From NCBI GenBank assembly GCA_964510585.1, contig CAZECW010000094.1, forward strand, positions 1-30,514: a stretch of DNA of 30,514 bases, written 5' to 3'. Every line of letters begins with the position of its first letter. The stretch's first letter is position 1. Position numbers and translations under genes: made by a program. This document shows positions 8,085 to 26,859 of this stretch, one piece after another. The notes under the pieces are model-generated. The model was not told the origin of the DNA. It saw only the letters and a list, made by a program, of their open reading frames with translations, and made no database searches. This DNA comes from an uncultured archaeon (GTDB lineage Archaea; Asgardarchaeota; Jordiarchaeia; Jordiarchaeales; Jordiarchaeaceae).

Positions 8085-9239
8085 TCATCTAGTTATTTCC
8101 TTGGGTATGGGGGTTATTTCTTTTTTGAAGAGTTTATTTCTGAGCCATAAGGAAATGTTTACCATGTTTATGAGTACTGGGACTTCTAGTAGGGGTCCTA
8201 TGACTGCTGCGAATGCTTGACCTGAAGCTATGCCGAAGACTCCTATTGTTACCGCTATTGCCAATTCGAAGTTGTTACTGGCGGCTGTAAAGGCTATGGT
8301 TGCTGTATTCTCGTAGCTGAATCCTAGACGCCAAGACATCACATAGGATATTAGGAACATTATGACGAAGTATAGAACTAGTGGAATTGCGATTCTCAGA
8401 ACATCGTAGGGGAGGGAAATTATTTTTCCGCCTTGAAGCGAAAACATCATTATAACCGTGAAGAGTAGACCTATTAGAGCAGTTGGGGCCAGCTTCTTAA
8501 CAAAGTAGCCATCATACCACTCTTTTCCTCTTCTCCTTATCAGGCTGTATCTGGTTATCATACCGGCAAATAGAGGTATGCCCAAGTATATTATGACACC
8601 TTTAGCTATGTCAATAATTGACACGTTTACCACTGCGGCCCCCGTAAGGCTCAGTATCCAAGAGGGTACCCCAAGGATTCCCAGAATCCAGCTATATTCC
8701 GCAAACCATGTCGGTGTTCCAGTGAGCAACGAAGGAAGGAAGGTGATATATATGTAAGCTAGTATGGAGTACATTATCATCTGGAAAACCGAGTTTAGAG
8801 CAACTAAAACTGCGCAGAGTTCACTGTCCCCTTTTGCGAGCTGGTTCCAAACAAGTACCATAGCAATGCAGCGAGCCAGCCCAACAATTATGAGCCCCAT
8901 ACGGTACTCGGGCATGTCGGGTAAGAAAACCCACGCTAATGCAAACATTAGCGCTGGGCCAATTATCCAGTTTTGAACAAGGGATAACGCGAAGGCTCTC
9001 TTGGCTCCAAAGAGTCTTGAGAGTTCCTCGTATTTTACTCTGGCTAGTGGTGGATACATCATCCATATGAGTCCTATAGCGATGGGTAGGGAGACGGTGT
9101 CGAGCCTTAGTTCATTAAGAATTCCAGAAACCTCGGGAACCGTGGCGCCTAGTAAAACTCCGATAGCCATTGCCAGAAAAATCCACAGTGTTAGAAATCT
9201 GTCCAGAAGAGAGAGCTTTTGAGTACTTTGATTTGACAT
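8085..9239 (-). CDS. acr3: ACR3-family arsenite efflux transporter
   Basis: [55 protein letters not shown] and GPLLEVPVL motifs. Confidence 0.96.
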
Positions 9240-9304: not shown

Positions 9305-9324
9305 ATATCGATAAATGCAAATAT
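9305..9324. promoter_or_regulatory. Putative ArsR-type operator (copy upstream of acr3 / divergent arsR)
   Basis: ATATCG-ATAAATGC-AAATAT. Confidence 0.55.
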
Positions 9325-9512
9325 GGGGAGATTGTTGTATATTGCTAAACTAGTGCTTGAGCCGAACGCATTCAAACAAACACTCTTAATGAGAATCTTT
9401 TTATTTCTAAGCAAACACCAAGCGATTTTAATTAAGGACATTTTACGGTAGGTTTAAGTGTATTTAAGATTATCGTTTCATATTGATATTTATAGATTTA
9501 GGATGTGAATCG

Positions 9513-9893
9513 ATGGAACGTTTAGCACGCCTAATCGAGGAGGATGAGTGCTCGGCAAAGTGTGAAGAATACGCTGATGAACTAAAAAAATTAATGGTAG
9601 AGATGGATAAAACCCCGTTATGCAAGTTTGGATCTCTACTTTTTAAAGCCCTAGCGGATCGTAATCGTCTAAGAATTTTGAAGATGCTGGCTGTTAGAGA
9701 GATGTGTGTTTGCGAATTAAATGTGGCATTAGACATTTCTCAGGGAACAATATCGCACCATCTGAAAATCCTCCAAGAAGCCAAATTAATAAAGGGAAGA
9801 GTGAAAGGTAAATGGAACTATTACCGACTCAGCAGTAAACAAGTTGATAAATTCATAAAAATCAGCGAACAACTCATAAAGGAATTATACTAA
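9513..9893 (+). CDS. arsR: ArsR/SmtB-family metalloregulator
   Basis: FKALADRNRLRIL, EMCVCEL (alpha3 CxC) and SQGTISHHLKIL motifs. Extra N-terminal Cys (ECSAKC, PLC). ATG 9513 is preferred over the ORF-track start at 9483. Confidence 0.93.
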   Translation: MERLARLIEEDECSAKCEEYADELKKLMVEMDKTPLCKFGSLLFKALADRNRLRILKMLAVREMCVCELNVALDISQGTISHHLKILQEAKLIKGRVKGKWNYYRLSSKQVDKFIKISEQLIKELY

Positions 9894-11271: not shown

Positions 11272-11613
11272 TTATTTAGATAGGGATTCTATGTCCTTTG
11301 TGGTTTCTGATATTCTGCGTAGGTGTTCTAGTATCATTTCATCGATCAGTTTTAGAACGAGGAATATTCGTGGATCCTTAACCTTATACTCCACTTTTTG
11401 CCCAATTTTTTTGTGCTCTAATATGTTGCAATTTTTTAGGATTTGAATGTGTTGGGAAACTGTAGATTGAGACTTGTAAACGTGGGGTAAAATATCGCAT
11501 TGACAGCACTCACCACTCCTCAGAAGATCCAGAATCTTCAACCTGGTTTCATCAGCCAAGGCTTTGAGCAGCTCAATCCTCTTCTTATACAGAAGCTCCT
11601 CCTTCTTCTCCAA
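11272..11613 (-). CDS. arsR: ArsR/SmtB-family metalloregulator (CCxC type)
   Basis: LKALADETRLKILDLLRSGECCQCDI and SQSTVSQHIQIL. Confidence 0.92.
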   Translation of the reverse strand: MEKKEELLYKKRIELLKALADETRLKILDLLRSGECCQCDILPHVYKSQSTVSQHIQILKNCNILEHKKIGQKVEYKVKDPRIFLVLKLIDEMILEHLRRISETTKDIESLSK

Positions 11614-17529: not shown

Positions 17530-17631
17530 GTAAAAGAAACATAAATAACCAAAAAACATCGGCAAGTTCTTGTAAGAACACTTGAAAAAAGTTAAATACA
17601 TGTATATGTGTATTTAATTTTGGTGGTATCA

Positions 17632-17880
17632 TTGGGACATAAGACCATTACAATTTCCGAGGAGGCATATAATTCACTAGCTGCGCTTAAACGTGAGAAT
17701 GAAAGTTTCACAGAGGTAATCCTCAGAGTAGTTTCCGAACTAAACAGGAAGCCGCTAACTTGGTTCGCGGGGAAATGGATTGGCGATAAATCAGAGCTTG
17801 ATGAGATTCTTAGGGTAATTCGCAGCGCCTGGACTGAGTATGAGGCAGAGCTAGGTGAGAGGAAAAATGGTTTGTTTTGA
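17632..17880 (+). CDS. vapB: VapB-type antitoxin (DUF217/COG1753-like)
   Basis: KTITISEEAYNSLAALKRENESFTEVILR...FAGKW. TTG 17632 is preferred as start. Confidence 0.88.
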   Translation: MGHKTITISEEAYNSLAALKRENESFTEVILRVVSELNRKPLTWFAGKWIGDKSELDEILRVIRSAWTEYEAELGERKNGLF

Positions 17881-18262
17881 TACTGATTTTATGGTGGCTT
17901 TACTCAAGGGACAGAGTGAAGCTATAAAAAAGGCGGAAGAGATAGAGAGTAGGGGAGAGAGGAAGACAACAACACCCATAGGCGCGTTTGAACTGTTCCT
18001 CGGTGCGAATCTTTCCAAGCATCAATTACAGAACATTAAATTAGTAAATAACTTCCTGCGAAACTTGGAGATTCTGAACTTTGATTTGGCAGCAGCAGAG
18101 AGAGCCGGAAAGATAGAAGCAGAACTCAGAAGATCAGGGAAGCCTATCGGGGTCAGAGACTCTATAGTTGCAGGAATAGCACTAAGACACGAACAAAAAA
18201 TTATCACAAAAAATGTTAAGCATTTTAGTCAAATTAGCGGCCTTTCTTATGAATCTTGGTAA
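17867..18262 (+). CDS. vapC: PIN-domain (VapC) ribonuclease toxin
   Basis: MVCFDTDF, GAFELFLG, IGVRDSIVAGIAL and ITKNVKHF motifs. Confidence 0.92.
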   Translation: MVCFDTDFMVALLKGQSEAIKKAEEIESRGERKTTTPIGAFELFLGANLSKHQLQNIKLVNNFLRNLEILNFDLAAAERAGKIEAELRRSGKPIGVRDSIVAGIALRHEQKIITKNVKHFSQISGLSYESW

Positions 18263-20267: not shown

Positions 20268-20750
20268 TTATGTTACCTTTTTTGTTACTGGGGCTTTTTT
20301 ACATACGCTGTTTTTTGGGGAAACTATTTGTTTCTCGTAGAGTTCATCCACCTTTTTTGCGATTTCTTCTGCGATTTTGTACGCTAATTCGTAACCAGCC
20401 TCGCCGAGGTCTTCTCGGGATTTGGGAACCAAAGCAGGGTATTTTTTCATTATTTCCTTTACTCTAATGGTTGCTGCTACAGGGCCGCTGTAGTTTTCCA
20501 CAGCAGTTCTGGCACATTCTTCTTCGCACCCTTCAATTGTGATTGTTGGGTGGGTCTTTGCAAATTCCCTTTCTTGGTTTCTACCTTTTCTTTCTAGTCC
20601 TCCAGCCATGAATAGGGGTTGACATAGGATTACAGTTTTTTCAGGTCGTAACTTTTCAAAAGCTATTATTGCAGCAACTCGGGATAAGGTGCCTTCAACC
20701 AAGTCTTCGCCACTGCAGGCAATGAGCCCAATTTTCTGTCTTATAGGCAA
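20268..20750 (-). CDS. DGC-domain putative zinc-binding protein (type B)
   Basis: IACSGEDLVEGT, ILCQP and IEGCEEECA (Cys4). TTG 20750 follows the SD GGTGA (the ORF track starts at 20786). Confidence 0.85.
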   Translation of the reverse strand: MPIRQKIGLIACSGEDLVEGTLSRVAAIIAFEKLRPEKTVILCQPLFMAGGLERKGRNQEREFAKTHPTITIEGCEEECARTAVENYSGPVAATIRVKEIMKKYPALVPKSREDLGEAGYELAYKIAEEIAKKVDELYEKQIVSPKNSVCKKAPVTKKVT

Positions 20751-20751
20751 G

Positions 20752-21171
20752 TTAATCACCGTTTCTTTTTTCTTCAAGTAACTCATTTATTTTTTGGTAG
20801 ATTTTTTCTGCAAGTTTGCGGGATAGTTTTTTTGCATTTTCTCCTAGTGGATAAACACTTCTTTCTGGTTTCAATTCACGATTTTCTTTTAATACATCTG
20901 TTGACAGGAATTGAGCATCAATTTTTCCCACAGCTTCTGAAACATCATTATACGAACACTTTAGAGAACACCCGTCAATCACAATAACTTTGTTTGATTT
21001 TAGTTTATCAATAACTTCTTTTTTCCCCTTAACAATTAGTGGGAGACATTCTGTGTCCGCCTTGCCTTTAGCTAGTTCGTTTACCACGATGTATGCTGCT
21101 TCTCTGCCTATACTGCCATAGACTTTACCTATTCCACTGCAGGGAAGCAGGTAAACTATTTCTTTTGTCAA
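20752..21171 (-). CDS. DGC-domain putative zinc-binding protein (type A)
   Basis: LPCSGIGKVYG, ECLP and IDGCSLKCS. Confidence 0.88.
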   Translation of the reverse strand: MTKEIVYLLPCSGIGKVYGSIGREAAYIVVNELAKGKADTECLPLIVKGKKEVIDKLKSNKVIVIDGCSLKCSYNDVSEAVGKIDAQFLSTDVLKENRELKPERSVYPLGENAKKLSRKLAEKIYQKINELLEEKRNGD

Positions 21172-21173
21172 GC

Positions 21174-22055
21174 TCAGTCGCCTATGTTTTGTGCTCTGTG
21201 TTTTCGTTCTTCTTCTATTTTCTTTTTCATATACTCAAAATAGGCTGGACCGTCCATTAATAATTCTTTATCCTCTTCAAAGTTTTTCAGTTCTACTTCT
21301 ACGAACCATCCCTTCCCATAGGGATCTTGATTTAATAGTTCGGGTGATTTTTCTAGTTCCTTGTTCACCGCGACGACTTTGCCTGAAGCGGGAGTAATCA
21401 GTTGGAGGACAATTTTTATGGATTCAAAGCTTCCTATGTCGTCAAACTGTTCAAATTCCAAACCGATTTCGGGAAATTCCACAAAAATTATGTCGCTTGC
21501 CATGTTTTGGAGGAAATCAGAGATGCCCATAAGCGCCTTTTTACCCATGGGTTTTACCCAGCAATCATTTTCATTAAAATAGTAGCCAGACTTTGGAACT
21601 CTGAAACGGAACTTATCTACGGTGGTTTCAAAATATTCGATTTCTTCCAGCTCCCTAATCTCAGCAACCTCACCTTCTGATTCCTTTAAACTTTCAAGAA
21701 TTTCGGACGCTATGAATTCGGCTAATTTTTGCCCCTCCTCATCCAAAATGAGAGATTTTCCGGGGTTCAACTTGTACTTTTTAACCATGTCGGGCGTAAA
21801 AATTTTTTTACCGGGCCTTAATGATCTTTCATCAAGTAGCTTAGTTGCGCAGCGAGTCATACATCCATCAATCACAATTATATCAGATTCCTTCAAGAGT
21901 TCTTCGTATTTTTCATCTCCCGTATTCAGGAGAACGGGGCATATCAGCTCGATGTCAGGATTCTTTTCTATTAATTTCAATGCCACGTTTCTAGCAACAA
22001 CACCCAAAGACTTATCAAGCCCATTGCAGGGCAAAACACAAACCTTCTTACCCAT
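21174..22055 (-). CDS. DGC-domain / glycine-cleavage-H (lipoyl carrier) fusion protein
   Basis: N-terminal LPCNG, ICP and IDGCMTRCA. C-terminal GISDF..DIIFVEFP..GSFESIK (lipoyl Lys, codon 21414-21416)..PASGKVVAVN..PELLNQDPYGKGW. Confidence 0.9.
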   Translation of the reverse strand: MGKKVCVLPCNGLDKSLGVVARNVALKLIEKNPDIELICPVLLNTGDEKYEELLKESDIIVIDGCMTRCATKLLDERSLRPGKKIFTPDMVKKYKLNPGKSLILDEEGQKLAEFIASEILESLKESEGEVAEIRELEEIEYFETTVDKFRFRVPKSGYYFNENDCWVKPMGKKALMGISDFLQNMASDIIFVEFPEIGLEFEQFDDIGSFESIKIVLQLITPASGKVVAVNKELEKSPELLNQDPYGKGWFVEVELKNFEEDKELLMDGPAYFEYMKKKIEEERKHRAQNIGD

Positions 22056-22068
22056 GAGAAATTCACCT

Positions 22069-22371
22069 CTACTCGCTTTCCTTCCTTAATTCTTTGATTA
22101 GCTTGGTAATCTCTCTTTTGTCGGGAAATGATAGTGCGTCCACAGCGCAGGTTTTGGCGCAAGCCCTACAAAAAACTACACAGTTGTATGGGTTTTTTAC
22201 TATCAGTTTCTTTTCCTCATTTTCTCTCCGCTCGTAAACGTTGTGGGGACAAAACTTGTCGCACTCCATACAGAAATTGCACTTGCTGTAGTCGATTGTG
22301 GGGAACCAGGGAATTTTCTTTCTGGGAACGCCCATAAAGGTTTCCTGTTCCGCATCGTACTCTTTACTCAT
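22069..22371 (-). CDS. 2x[4Fe-4S] ferredoxin-like protein
   Basis: CNFCMECDKFCP and CVVFCRACAKTC, with an N-terminal FMGVPRKKIPWFPTIDY extension. Confidence 0.9.
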   Translation of the reverse strand: MSKEYDAEQETFMGVPRKKIPWFPTIDYSKCNFCMECDKFCPHNVYERRENEEKKLIVKNPYNCVVFCRACAKTCAVDALSFPDKREITKLIKELRKESE

Positions 22372-22762
22372 TCTTTTCTTCCTCCTCCTCTTTCTTTTCT
22401 TGGTATTCTTCTAGGGTTTTTTCAACTAGTTCTACAGCTTGGTCTGTTGTCATTTCTCTTATGTCGAGGGGTATGAGGTCTTTTTTTACATCTAGACCCG
22501 CTTTTTCGAAAGAGTCACGAAACAGTTTATATTGCATGTTGGGAGCGCAACCCGCTATGAGGTATTTTCGTCCGGGACGCAGAAAATCTTCAAGGAAGCG
22601 GTCACCATCTTCTTCGCAAAGCTGTGGATGAATAAACGCATATTCTACGGGTAGTTCTACACGTACCCGGTTAATAAAGTCCCAAATATCCATTTTTGCA
22701 AATCCTGGACATTTACCGGTGCATACGCACATTATAACGCCGATGTCTTTTTCTTCACTCAT
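22364..22762 (-). CDS. Stand-alone HdrA N-terminal-domain-like protein
   Basis: IGVIMCVC, QLCEEDG, IAGCAPNM..LFR and DIRE mirror the HdrA N-terminus (IGVYxCHC, MCSDPG, VAACSP..FR, NIRE). ATG 22762 is preferred; the ORF-track extension runs through the promoter. Confidence 0.7.
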   Translation of the reverse strand: MSEEKDIGVIMCVCTGKCPGFAKMDIWDFINRVRVELPVEYAFIHPQLCEEDGDRFLEDFLRPGRKYLIAGCAPNMQYKLFRDSFEKAGLDVKKDLIPLDIREMTTDQAVELVEKTLEEYQEKKEEEEEKNE

Positions 22763-22880: not shown

Positions 22881-22900
22881 ATATCGATTAATGGCAATAT
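22881..22900. promoter_or_regulatory. Putative ArsR-type operator
   Basis: ATATCG-ATTAATGG-CAATAT in the divergent intergenic region. Confidence 0.65.
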
Positions 22901-24987: not shown

Positions 24988-25440
24988 CTAGTCACTTAGT
25001 TTATCGACTGCTTCTGTAGGTGTTAAAGCTTGAATGTTGAGATAGTCTTTGAAGTCTGCGGGGTTCCAGGTTACCAAAACCTCGGAGTAGGCTTCTGCGT
25101 GGGAGGCTATAAGGAAGTCTGGTAAAATTCTTTTTCTCGCTCCTGGCCGTTGAAGAAGGTACTGGGAAAACATTTGCCCAGCTCTCTTTGCGACCTCCAA
25201 GGAACCACCAAGGTGAACTAATATATTGTTTACCGCAAGGAATTTTTGAACATTATACTCTTCTTCCTCCGGATTCCCACTGAGAAATATTCCCGCATAT
25301 AGTTCTGCATACACAACTCCAGAAATTATCAGACTCAGTTTTTTATCTCTAGCCCATCTGAAAAATTTGAGTGTCTCGTGAAAGAATTCGTCGGCTTTGA
25401 GATGGCTAATTATAACACTTGTATCAAGTGAAACTCTCAA
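24988..25440 (-). CDS. vapC: PIN-domain (VapC) toxin
   Basis: LDTSVII, VYAEL, ILPDFLIASHA and LVTWNPADF motifs. Confidence 0.92.
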   Translation of the reverse strand: MRVSLDTSVIISHLKADEFFHETLKFFRWARDKKLSLIISGVVYAELYAGIFLSGNPEEEEYNVQKFLAVNNILVHLGGSLEVAKRAGQMFSQYLLQRPGARKRILPDFLIASHAEAYSEVLVTWNPADFKDYLNIQALTPTEAVDKLSD

Positions 25441-25442
25441 CC

Positions 25443-25700
25443 CTAATCCTCTTCTTCGGCTTTGCCTCTAAGCCATCGTACAATTTCTACTGAGTTTTTC
25501 ATTTTTCCAAAGATAGGATGGTTGTTCCAGACCCCTGCAGTTTCCGCCATGACTTTCTCCCACTCTCCGCCAACCTTCTCTATAATTATTTTGCCGTCTA
25601 CATATCGGACATCGACAATGTCTCCTATGGTTAGCCCTACTTTCTCCCTAATCTCTTGAGGAATTGTTACCTGAAAGCGACGCGTGACCTTTACAAACAA
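25443..25700 (-). CDS. AbrB/MazE/SpoVT-family antitoxin
   Basis: VKVTRRFQVTIPQEIREKVGLTIGDIVDV...GKIIIEK. Confidence 0.9.
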   Translation of the reverse strand: MFVKVTRRFQVTIPQEIREKVGLTIGDIVDVRYVDGKIIIEKVGGEWEKVMAETAGVWNNHPIFGKMKNSVEIVRWLRGKAEEED

Positions 25701-25803: not shown

Positions 25804-26859
25804 TTATGGGAGAATTGTTTTTGCTTGCATTATTGCTACTATGAGGTCTGTTGGTTTTATTCCAGGTGTAATAATATTTTGTTTATAAAAATCTTCGACT
25901 ATTTGTTTTATGTTTTGATAGTTGTATGGTTTGTCTTTTAGCATTTTTTCGAGTTGTTTTAGTGCCTGTGGAGGGGTTATGAAGAAGTCTCCGCTTATGT
26001 TTATTTCTTTAATATTGTTGTTGGATATGTTTAGTGAGACGCGTATTAGTCCTCCGGGTGCCTTGTACACGGTTTCGTGTTCAAACTCGAGGCTGCTTCC
26101 AAAAATCCACTCGGGGGAGCTATACTTTTTTTGGAGTTCCCGGGCCATTTCGAGTTCTTCTGGTGTGAGTTTCGAGTCCTGGAACTCGACGCCAAGAGCT
26201 TCTTGGTATCCCCTGCGAACCGCGTTTTTCACAATACTCACGGGAATTGTTGTCCCCAGCTCCCTTTTTATTGTTGTCACTCTATCTCTTACTGAGGATG
26301 CATTCTTGTCCCTGAGTTTTTCGGTGGACACTCTCAGAGCATTTTCTAAATTTTCAAAGTTTAGATCTATGAGGAGTGTTCCGTGATGGATGAGAACATT
26401 ATGGAGTTGGTGCTGAGCGTTTCCAGAAATTTTTCTTTTACCAATAACAATATCATTTACGGGCTTAAACTCTGCCTCCAGTCCCAATAATTTAAGGGCG
26501 ATAATTAAACCTCTACAGAGATACGAGTATGATTCTATGGGGTCTTTGAAGGATCTGAACTTGTTAGTGTCTATGTAGAGTGAGTAGTTTAGGTTTCCCG
26601 AATCCTGGTACACTGCCCCGCCCCCCGATAGTCTTCTAACTATTTTTATTCCCTTCTGTTTACAGTAGTCTACATTCACTTCTTTCTCTACCCGCTGGTT
26701 GCACCCTACACTTACGATTAGGGGGTGTTGCCACACTCTGAGAGCGTTTGGAGAATTTTTTTCCAGTATGCTTCTGGCCATGGTTTCTTCTATTGCTAGG
26801 TTCATGTATGGGTCATCTGAACTATAGTCGATAAAGCGCCAGGACTCCTTCAAAGTCAC
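25804..26859 (-). CDS. lplA: Lipoate-protein ligase A (with C-terminal adenylation-assisting domain)
   Basis: YMNLAIEE, VRRLSGGGAVYQDSGNLNYS, VNDI, RKISGNAQ, HHGTLL and C-terminal YKAPGGLIRV...ISGDFF. Confidence 0.93.
   Translation of the reverse strand: MTLKESWRFIDYSSDDPYMNLAIEETMARSILEKNSPNALRVWQHPLIVSVGCNQRVEKEVNVDYCKQKGIKIVRRLSGGGAVYQDSGNLNYSLYIDTNKFRSFKDPIESYSYLCRGLIIALKLLGLEAEFKPVNDIVIGKRKISGNAQHQLHNVLIHHGTLLIDLNFENLENALRVSTEKLRDKNASSVRDRVTTIKRELGTTIPVSIVKNAVRRGYQEALGVEFQDSKLTPEELEMARELQKKYSSPEWIFGSSLEFEHETVYKAPGGLIRVSLNISNNNIKEINISGDFFITPPQALKQLEKMLKDKPYNYQNIKQIVEDFYKQNIITPGIKPTDLIVAIMQAKTILP

Follow-up and report, generated by a model that had tools for sequence, protein, structure and literature searches.

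An HdrA-N-like gene is coupled to a ferredoxin gene

The 30.5-kb window (the whole stretch of DNA analyzed here) contains, at 22364..22762 on the minus strand, an open reading frame for a stand-alone protein of 132 aa that we call HdrA-N-like, as the N-termini of HdrA proteins are its best matches in a phmmer search of the PDB and in structural comparisons with Foldseek and VIA-align. The ATG of this frame lies at 22762 and its stop at 22364-22366; a longer frame, from 22927 and with TTG as its start, is also present, and the family alignment favors the ATG. The cysteines of the protein are arranged in a CxCxxxC motif (Cys12, Cys14, and Cys18), a QLC motif (Cys49), and a GCAP motif (Cys72), all of them invariant in an alignment of 25 close homologs. 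No Pfam model matches the protein, which hence lacks an FAD or pyridine-nucleotide domain; by its length and by the Pfam search, the thioredoxin-reductase-like FAD domain of HdrA is absent, and comparison with NCBIfam gave only a sub-threshold match to the N-terminus of HdrA2. Frame, translation, and Pfam search bear out an earlier note, made from the sequence alone, that had described a 132-aa protein with CxCxxxC, LC, and GCAP motifs and no FAD region.

The same note had reported that the stop of this gene overlaps the start of a ferredoxin gene, and the coupling is real. The ferredoxin (100 aa, 22069..22371, minus strand) has Fer4_10, Fer4_7, and Fer4 matches (PF13237, PF12838, and PF00037, above their cut-offs), and Fer4 dicluster families are the only ones matched, as befits a 2×[4Fe-4S] protein. 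It carries a CxxCxxCxxxCP motif and a variant CxxxCxxCxxxC motif, whose eight cysteines are invariant (n = 72 orthologs), and its nearest solved relatives are the polyferredoxin units FwdF and MvhB, NuoI, and HdrA's C-terminal ferredoxin domain. Stop and start overlap by 8 nt (ATGAGTAA, 22364..22371, minus strand). Across related loci, the first in-frame ATG of the ferredoxin gene overlaps the upstream HdrA-N-like stop in 60/76 cases, a retention that is not due to chance and that speaks for co-translation and for a complex of fixed ratio.

Three further genes follow on the minus strand: a fusion of a DGC domain with a GcvH-type lipoyl carrier (DGC-GcvH, 21174..22055; PF08859 and PF01597), a type A DGC protein (20752..21171; assigned by PF08859 and synteny, model pLDDT 93.6), and a type B DGC protein (20268..20786; PF08859 and synteny). 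The carrier part of the fusion contains the sequence ESIK within its PF01597 match, and a dedicated lipoate ligase, LplA, is encoded at 25804-26859. The window also holds all six DGC domains of the genome and its only ACR3 arsenite efflux permease (8085..9239, minus strand; TIGR00832, 429 bits versus a cut-off of 282.8). Two ArsR-family regulators, at 9483..9893 (plus strand; NF033788 and PF01022) and at 11272..11613 (minus strand; an ArsR-family match), carry CVC and CCxC motifs within the sequences EMCVCEL and GECCQCDIL, respectively, at a position that we take to be that of the As(III)-binding cysteines of R773 ArsR. An operator-like palindrome, ATATCG-N8-CAATAT, lies at 22881..22900 (no strand assigned), approximately 120 nt upstream of the ATG of the operon, and the same palindrome is found in the acr3/arsR intergenic region (9305-9324); in the relaxed form ATATYG-N8-CRATAT it occurs at eight sites in the window, compared with 0.27 expected. 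Judged by its neighbors and by these motifs, the pair appears to belong to an ArsR-controlled regulon of strict anaerobes and would be induced by arsenic.

The palindrome sites (9305, 12367, 13311, 16952, 22881, 23067, 25602, and 29137) join acr3/arsR, a radical-SAM pair, two DGC operons, and the DsrE-side genes into what may be one regulon. We also observed that pairs of a VapB/MazE-type antitoxin and a PIN toxin have been inserted within the island, at 17608-18262 and 24988-25700.

The protein is a detached homolog of the HdrA N-terminal domain

When all PDB sequences were searched with phmmer, HdrA chains took ranks 1, 2, and 4 of the best four, led by 7bkb_A (E 0.011, query residues 4-92 against chain residues 6-94) and including 9sfi_A and 5odc_A. 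An AlphaFold model built on 25 homologs (pLDDT 83, with approximately 66 around residues 11-20) has four β-α units. With this model as query, the top seven Foldseek matches are all HdrA (E 3.5e-5 to 5.7e-4, prob 1.0), and the top seven rows from VIA-align are likewise HdrA N-termini (Z 8.9-10.5 over approximately 120 residues), followed by generic designed Rossmann folds at Z ≤7.8. The N-domains of seven HdrA-like paralogs from the same genome match the protein cysteine for cysteine at positions 12, 14, 49, and 72 and have an (N/D)IRE motif in common with it. Sequence search, both structural comparisons, and the paralog alignment thus agree with the HdrA-N likeness that had been proposed for the 132-aa protein, and the similarity to HdrA structures on which that proposal leaned is present. 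The protein is an autonomous, detached homolog of HdrA's [4Fe-4S]-binding N-terminal domain.

In HdrA the [4Fe-4S] cluster of this domain is part of the low-potential branch toward the ferredoxin domains (PMC13518236, PMC6019823), with electrons passing from the bifurcating flavin to the N-terminal-domain cluster and on to the ferredoxin-domain clusters (PMC13518236, PMC6019823, PMC13580544); papers are inconsistent as to whether cluster HA3 belongs to the N-terminal part of HdrA or to its C-terminal part (PMC13518236 versus PMC12350162, the latter placing it C-terminally). The HdrA N-domain (PDB 5ODC, 7BKB, 8RVY) and the HdrA-N-like protein share a Rossmann-like β-α-β-α-β-α-β-α fold, four cysteines at equivalent positions (CxC, C, and xCxP) together with the (N/D)IRE motif, and partnership with 2×[4Fe-4S] ferredoxin units. 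They differ in that the HdrA-N-like protein is a separate 132-aa polypeptide, without flavin domain and without HdrB/C, that lacks the QCSWVH insertion of HdrA and instead has an extra Cys18 (CxCxxxC), and in that it is found in an ArsR regulon and not in methanogenic or bifurcating Hdr complexes. Similarity at the sequence level is marginal, at E 0.011 in the PDB search and only approximately 2e-4 for profile matches to long proteins.

As a side observation, two HdrA-like open reading frames of the window's genome, of 1028 and 1014 aa (G000:C76 L003 and G000:C188 L005), carry the "N-terminal" domain internally, at approximately residue 458, which implies that something large is fused ahead of HdrA in this genome.

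The cysteines of the HdrA-N-like protein are not equally conserved. Among 23 of the most divergent full-length members of the family (23-60% identity), Cys12, Cys14, Cys49, Gly53, and Cys72 are invariant, whereas Cys18 is missing in seven. For this reason we consider Cys12, Cys14, Cys49, and Cys72 to be the likely ligands of a predicted [4Fe-4S] cluster. Cys18, which stands four residues beyond the second predicted ligand, is present in 80/80 genes of the clade to which the window belongs (clade A) and in 51/53 genes of a sister clade (clade B); on the evidence of these alignments, it is an addition retained in the arsenic-linked clades.

The family is widespread, stand-alone, and distinct from split hdrA genes

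We found more than 1,300 matching stand-alone proteins of 72-231 aa, with the best 120 of these spanning 117-165 aa, and relatives of the HdrA-N-like protein are encoded in at least 343 species genomes. The typical member is a protein of approximately 125 aa that is 70-95% conserved across archaeal and bacterial phyla; the best 120 homologs, at 70-89% identity, belong to Asgard lineages, Bathyarchaeia, Bacteroidales, Actinomycetota, Clostridia, Armatimonadota, and Eremiobacterota. When 1.84 billion cluster representatives were searched with a profile, 127 matches were obtained, nearly all of ≤208 aa and only three of them long proteins (E ~2e-4); the family is thus tight, stand-alone, and separate. 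Fused forms were not found among proteins of 232-2000 aa, where a single partial match was seen, although this result by itself is weak evidence, and an open reading frame for the HdrA flavin domain is near the gene in only 3/80 clade-A loci, at a distance of several kb.

These observations lead us to reject the possibility that the gene is a split or decayed hdrA, a reading that is also contradicted by the seven HdrA paralogs of the same genome, all of which keep their own copy of the N-domain. The earlier note had described a detached module and had named a fragment of a split hdrA as an outcome that would overturn this description; with more than 1,300 stand-alone homologs, it is the split-gene reading that failed. 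The gene has a patchy distribution in the window's phylum (33/201 genomes), as would be expected of an accessory island, and a tblastn search of PLSDB gave no match that would indicate carriage on plasmids.

In databases, members of the family are named "hypothetical protein" or "HdrA-like polyferredoxin", clusters in the protein atlas are likewise labeled "hypothetical" or "HdrA-like", and neither Pfam nor NCBIfam has a model for the family. The literature on DGC/PF08859, on ars operons with glycine cleavage and ferredoxin genes, and on arsenic and Hdr in Asgard archaea yielded no account of this pair; the one relevant item concerns P. mercurii ND132, in which an ars operon includes a PF08859 protein whose function is not known (bioRxiv 10.1101/2022.10.17.512643). 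The HdrA-N-like/ferredoxin pair would appear, from genome comparison, to be a widespread but undescribed component of arsenic-controlled gene sets in oxygen-free microbes.

The clade-A cassette lies among arsenic genes

Across 80 clade-A loci from genome assemblies, the order of the cassette is fixed as HdrA-N-like, ferredoxin, DGC-GcvH, DGC, DGC. The ferredoxin gene comes next after the HdrA-N-like gene in 79/80 loci, the DGC-GcvH fusion directly after the ferredoxin in 75/80, and DGC genes are found in 73/80; a thioredoxin gene is present in 30/80. A GcvH-type lipoyl carrier, fused to a DGC domain, is a regular companion of the pair throughout this clade.

An ArsR-family gene is found in 69/80 of these loci and an arsenic-specific gene (with representatives above NCBIfam cut-offs) in 55/80, so that 74/80 have one or the other; among the six loci with neither, five are short or cut near the cassette. 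Of the arsenic-specific genes, ACR3 occurs in 32 loci, a fusion of ArsF with ArsG in 36, and ArsC/ArsM of the thioredoxin type in 24. With respect to the fusions, we observed that ArsF (nitroreductase subunit-like) and ArsG (an aromatic arsenical efflux permease) are joined in one gene ≤8 kb from the cassette in these 36/80 loci (for example, L060:2625-3809), and that ArsC of the thioredoxin type is fused to ArsM close to the cassette in the 24/80.

A sister clade has the pair without the lipoyl and DGC genes

To sample clade B, metagenome contigs were scanned with P0158, a stand-alone relative at 31% identity, giving 64 loci, of which the 41 with room downstream were used for counting. A homologous ferredoxin follows in 37/41, an ArsR gene lies ≤1.5 kb away in 31/41, and a PF13192 (ArsE/MTH895-type) thioredoxin-like gene adjoins the pair on the same strand in 14/41. 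The DGC-GcvH fusion is found in one clade-B locus only, approximately 6 kb upstream of the pair. Two metagenome loci that were checked in detail (L131:5290-6743 and L163:5611-6777) are minimal units of arsR, the HdrA-N-like gene, and the ferredoxin gene, and their flanking genes are unrelated (glutamate synthase, AcrB).

Since the pair occurs in this clade without a lipoyl protein, lipoyl cannot be its sole or obligatory substrate; what is conserved as a functional unit is the Fe-S pair under ArsR control, for which the lipoyl/DGC genes are one partner set among several. In clade B, many operons consist of arsR-hdrAN-fdx and nothing more, with no obvious thiol partner, so that the pair may be active in its own right. 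The lipoyl-free sister clade also weakens the suggestion, made in the earlier note, that the HdrA-N-like module may replace dihydrolipoamide dehydrogenase, as do two full-length Lpd-like open reading frames in the window's genome (G000:C53:181-1542 and G000:C144:10347-11693), which score 393-395 bits versus a TIGR01350 cut-off of 408.8.

A candidate ferredoxin-driven route for reducing thiol proteins

We tentatively propose, with a confidence that stops a little short of even, that the pair is an ArsR-regulon, ferredoxin-driven electron-input module for thiol proteins, probably a disulfide reductase. The HdrA-N-like protein and its dedicated 2×[4Fe-4S] ferredoxin would be made in fixed proportion; a cellular low-potential reductant would charge the two ferredoxin clusters, and these would pass electrons to an HdrA-N-type cluster ligated by Cys12, Cys14, Cys49, and Cys72, which together with Cys18 may cleave disulfides on co-encoded thiol proteins in one-electron steps, in the manner of FTR. 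In clade A the candidate clients would be the lipoyl arm and the Cys4 DGC domains of DGC-GcvH along with the two DGC proteins, and in the sister clade the ArsE-type thioredoxin-like proteins. Once reduced, their thiols could bind or reduce arsenicals for subsequent export by the ACR3 pump. The proposal fits the thiol-rich partners of the pair (lipoyl-GcvH, Cys4 DGC proteins, thioredoxins, and ArsE-like proteins), and it fits strictly anaerobic hosts together with the chemistry of trivalent arsenicals, which bind dihydrolipoyl dithiols avidly.

So constituted, the pair would do for anaerobes, with electrons from ferredoxin, what the ArsT/ArsX thioredoxin system does with NADPH. ArsT (an NADPH thioredoxin reductase) and ArsX (a thioredoxin) are auxiliaries for disulfide reduction linked to ars clusters (PMC6514093), and both systems would place an auxiliary disulfide-reducing capacity under an arsenic regulon; ArsT, however, is an NADPH flavoenzyme, whereas the pair consists of Fe-S proteins only, is presumably driven by ferredoxin, and is found in strict anaerobes. 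The likeness to FTR is one of logic only: a small [4Fe-4S] protein would take single electrons from ferredoxin with one or more cysteines beside the cluster, and thiol-disulfide proteins would, by analogy, be the likely clients. The CPC/CHC site of FTR has seven cysteines and includes an internal redox-active disulfide. In contrast, the HdrA-N-like protein has one extra cysteine only, in the pattern CxCxxxC...C...C and not CPC...CPC...CHC; FTR is not among the structural matches listed, and no relation to it was detected in sequence or fold.

Arsenic resistance is textbook biology drawn from few proteins, mostly those of aerobes and facultative bacteria. If the pair does drive thiol or lipoyl reduction from ferredoxin, this would explain how arsenic defense is powered in strict anaerobes, including Asgard archaea without either known type of ArsC, and would put an Hdr building block to a new use, perhaps in an Fe-S disulfide reductase of a new kind. 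In a bolder form of the idea, which we think on balance unlikely, Fe-S disulfide/metalloid reductases of independent type would number three, with the pair joining FTR and HdrB. Running on ferredoxin electrons alone, the pair would either reduce arsenate or other arsenicals directly at Cys18 and the cluster or regenerate a protein-borne dihydrolipoyl "anti-arsenical" dithiol; were this so, strict anaerobes such as Asgard archaea would obtain from it the ArsC/thioredoxin-reductase function that is missing in them. As both proteins are small and the activities proposed for them simple, the question is directly testable.

Alternative readings of the pair

An alternative that we regard as possible, if improbable, is that the pair does nothing but carry electrons: the HdrA-N-like cluster and the ferredoxin would form a relay to the DGC proteins or to an unlinked enzyme, with Cys18 serving as a structural residue or an alternative ligand. 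This would suit the ferredoxin, whose nearest relatives are polyferredoxin relay units, and the HdrA N-terminal cluster itself, which is a shuttle and not a catalytic site (PMC13580544, PMC13518236). It would also suit the absence of Cys18 from some remote relatives, but not its retention in 131/133 genes of the two clades, and the bare arsR-hdrAN-fdx operons encode no adjoining acceptor to which such a relay could lead.

We find it doubtful that the pair acts by itself to reduce an arsenic species such as arsenate with ferredoxin electrons, the substrate binding at Cys18 beside the cluster. Minimal arsR-hdrAN-fdx operons do occur beside ACR3, and the window's genome, which is 96% complete and encodes ArsR regulators and one ACR3, has no match to TIGR02691, PF01451, or PF03960, and so to either known family of cytoplasmic arsenate reductase (ArsC). 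However, chemical precedent for such a reaction is lacking, and the thioredoxin-type ArsC/ArsM present in 24/80 clade-A loci indicates that the pair is no simple replacement for ArsC.

It is just as doubtful that the HdrA-N-like protein is a metalloid chaperone or buffer, using Cys12, Cys14, and Cys18 as an S3 site for As(III)/Sb(III) in the way that ArsD uses Cys12, Cys13, and Cys18. Its MCVCTGKCPG motif does resemble the MCCSSGVCG of an ArsD open reading frame in a related locus, and the protein is a member of the ArsR regulon. The likeness remains at the level of the motif: hhalign against that ArsD frame gave a probability of 0.35% over 11 residues, and in the absence of a Pfam match (PF06953) we reject homology to ArsD. 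The fold matches HdrA-N and not the thioredoxin fold, which is presumably that of ArsD; Cys49 and Cys72 show the same invariance as Cys12 and Cys14, relatives without Cys18 exist, and a metalloid-binding role would leave the obligate ferredoxin partner unexplained.

Sulfur or persulfide handling akin to that of the sHdr-LbpA system, with the ArsR-type regulators sensing sulfane sulfur or thioarsenate, appears very improbable. ArsR-family regulators also sense sulfane sulfur, and the window contains a lipoyl carrier, LplA genes, DsrE/DsrH-like genes, and TauE; such regulators of sulfur oxidation are known (PMC10451225), and there are weak, sub-threshold matches to the BigR and TsoR models. As in sHdr-LbpA, an Hdr-derived Fe-S protein has beside it a GcvH-like lipoyl carrier that is served by lipoate ligases of its own. 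The HdrA-N-like cassette nevertheless lacks sHdrA/B/C and has arsenic genes for neighbors, and its Hdr-derived part is the N-terminal domain, which sHdrA is not known to have. Genes of the shdrC1B1AHC2B2 type occur neither in the window nor beside the cassette in the 80 loci, where bona fide arsenic genes dominate the neighborhoods and DsrE-like genes are found in only 3/80. The earlier note was right that no HdrA, HdrB, or HdrC is present, as annotation of the 30.5-kb window confirms, but its sHdr sulfur-oxidation frame is not supported, given a context of ArsR, ACR3, ArsFG, and ArsC/ArsM without Hdr-like catalytic subunits.

Finally, it is scarcely credible that the HdrA-N-like protein is an hdrA fragment or an adaptor docking on the Hdr/Mvh complexes of the genome, which does encode seven HdrA-like genes and approximately 35 CCG-domain proteins, in view of the N-domain that every one of these seven paralogs owns and of a cross-phylum family of ~125-aa proteins with no fused forms and the flavin part near in 3/80 loci.

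Fold of the DGC proteins

We considered whether the HdrA-N-like and DGC proteins are homologous and rejected this, as hhalign probabilities were ≤39% and mostly <3%; HdrA was not among the top 50 structural matches of the type A DGC model. That model (20752-21171, pLDDT 93.6) has a flavodoxin-like fold, in which an invariant P-C-S-G-x-G-K...R loop past strand 1 may correspond to a Cys-headed anion-binding loop. Thioredoxin-coupled ArsC/LMW-PTP proteins appear only as weak Foldseek rows (prob 0.28-0.47), and the best solved match is 3pu6_A, an uncharacterized Wolinella protein (Z 8.7).
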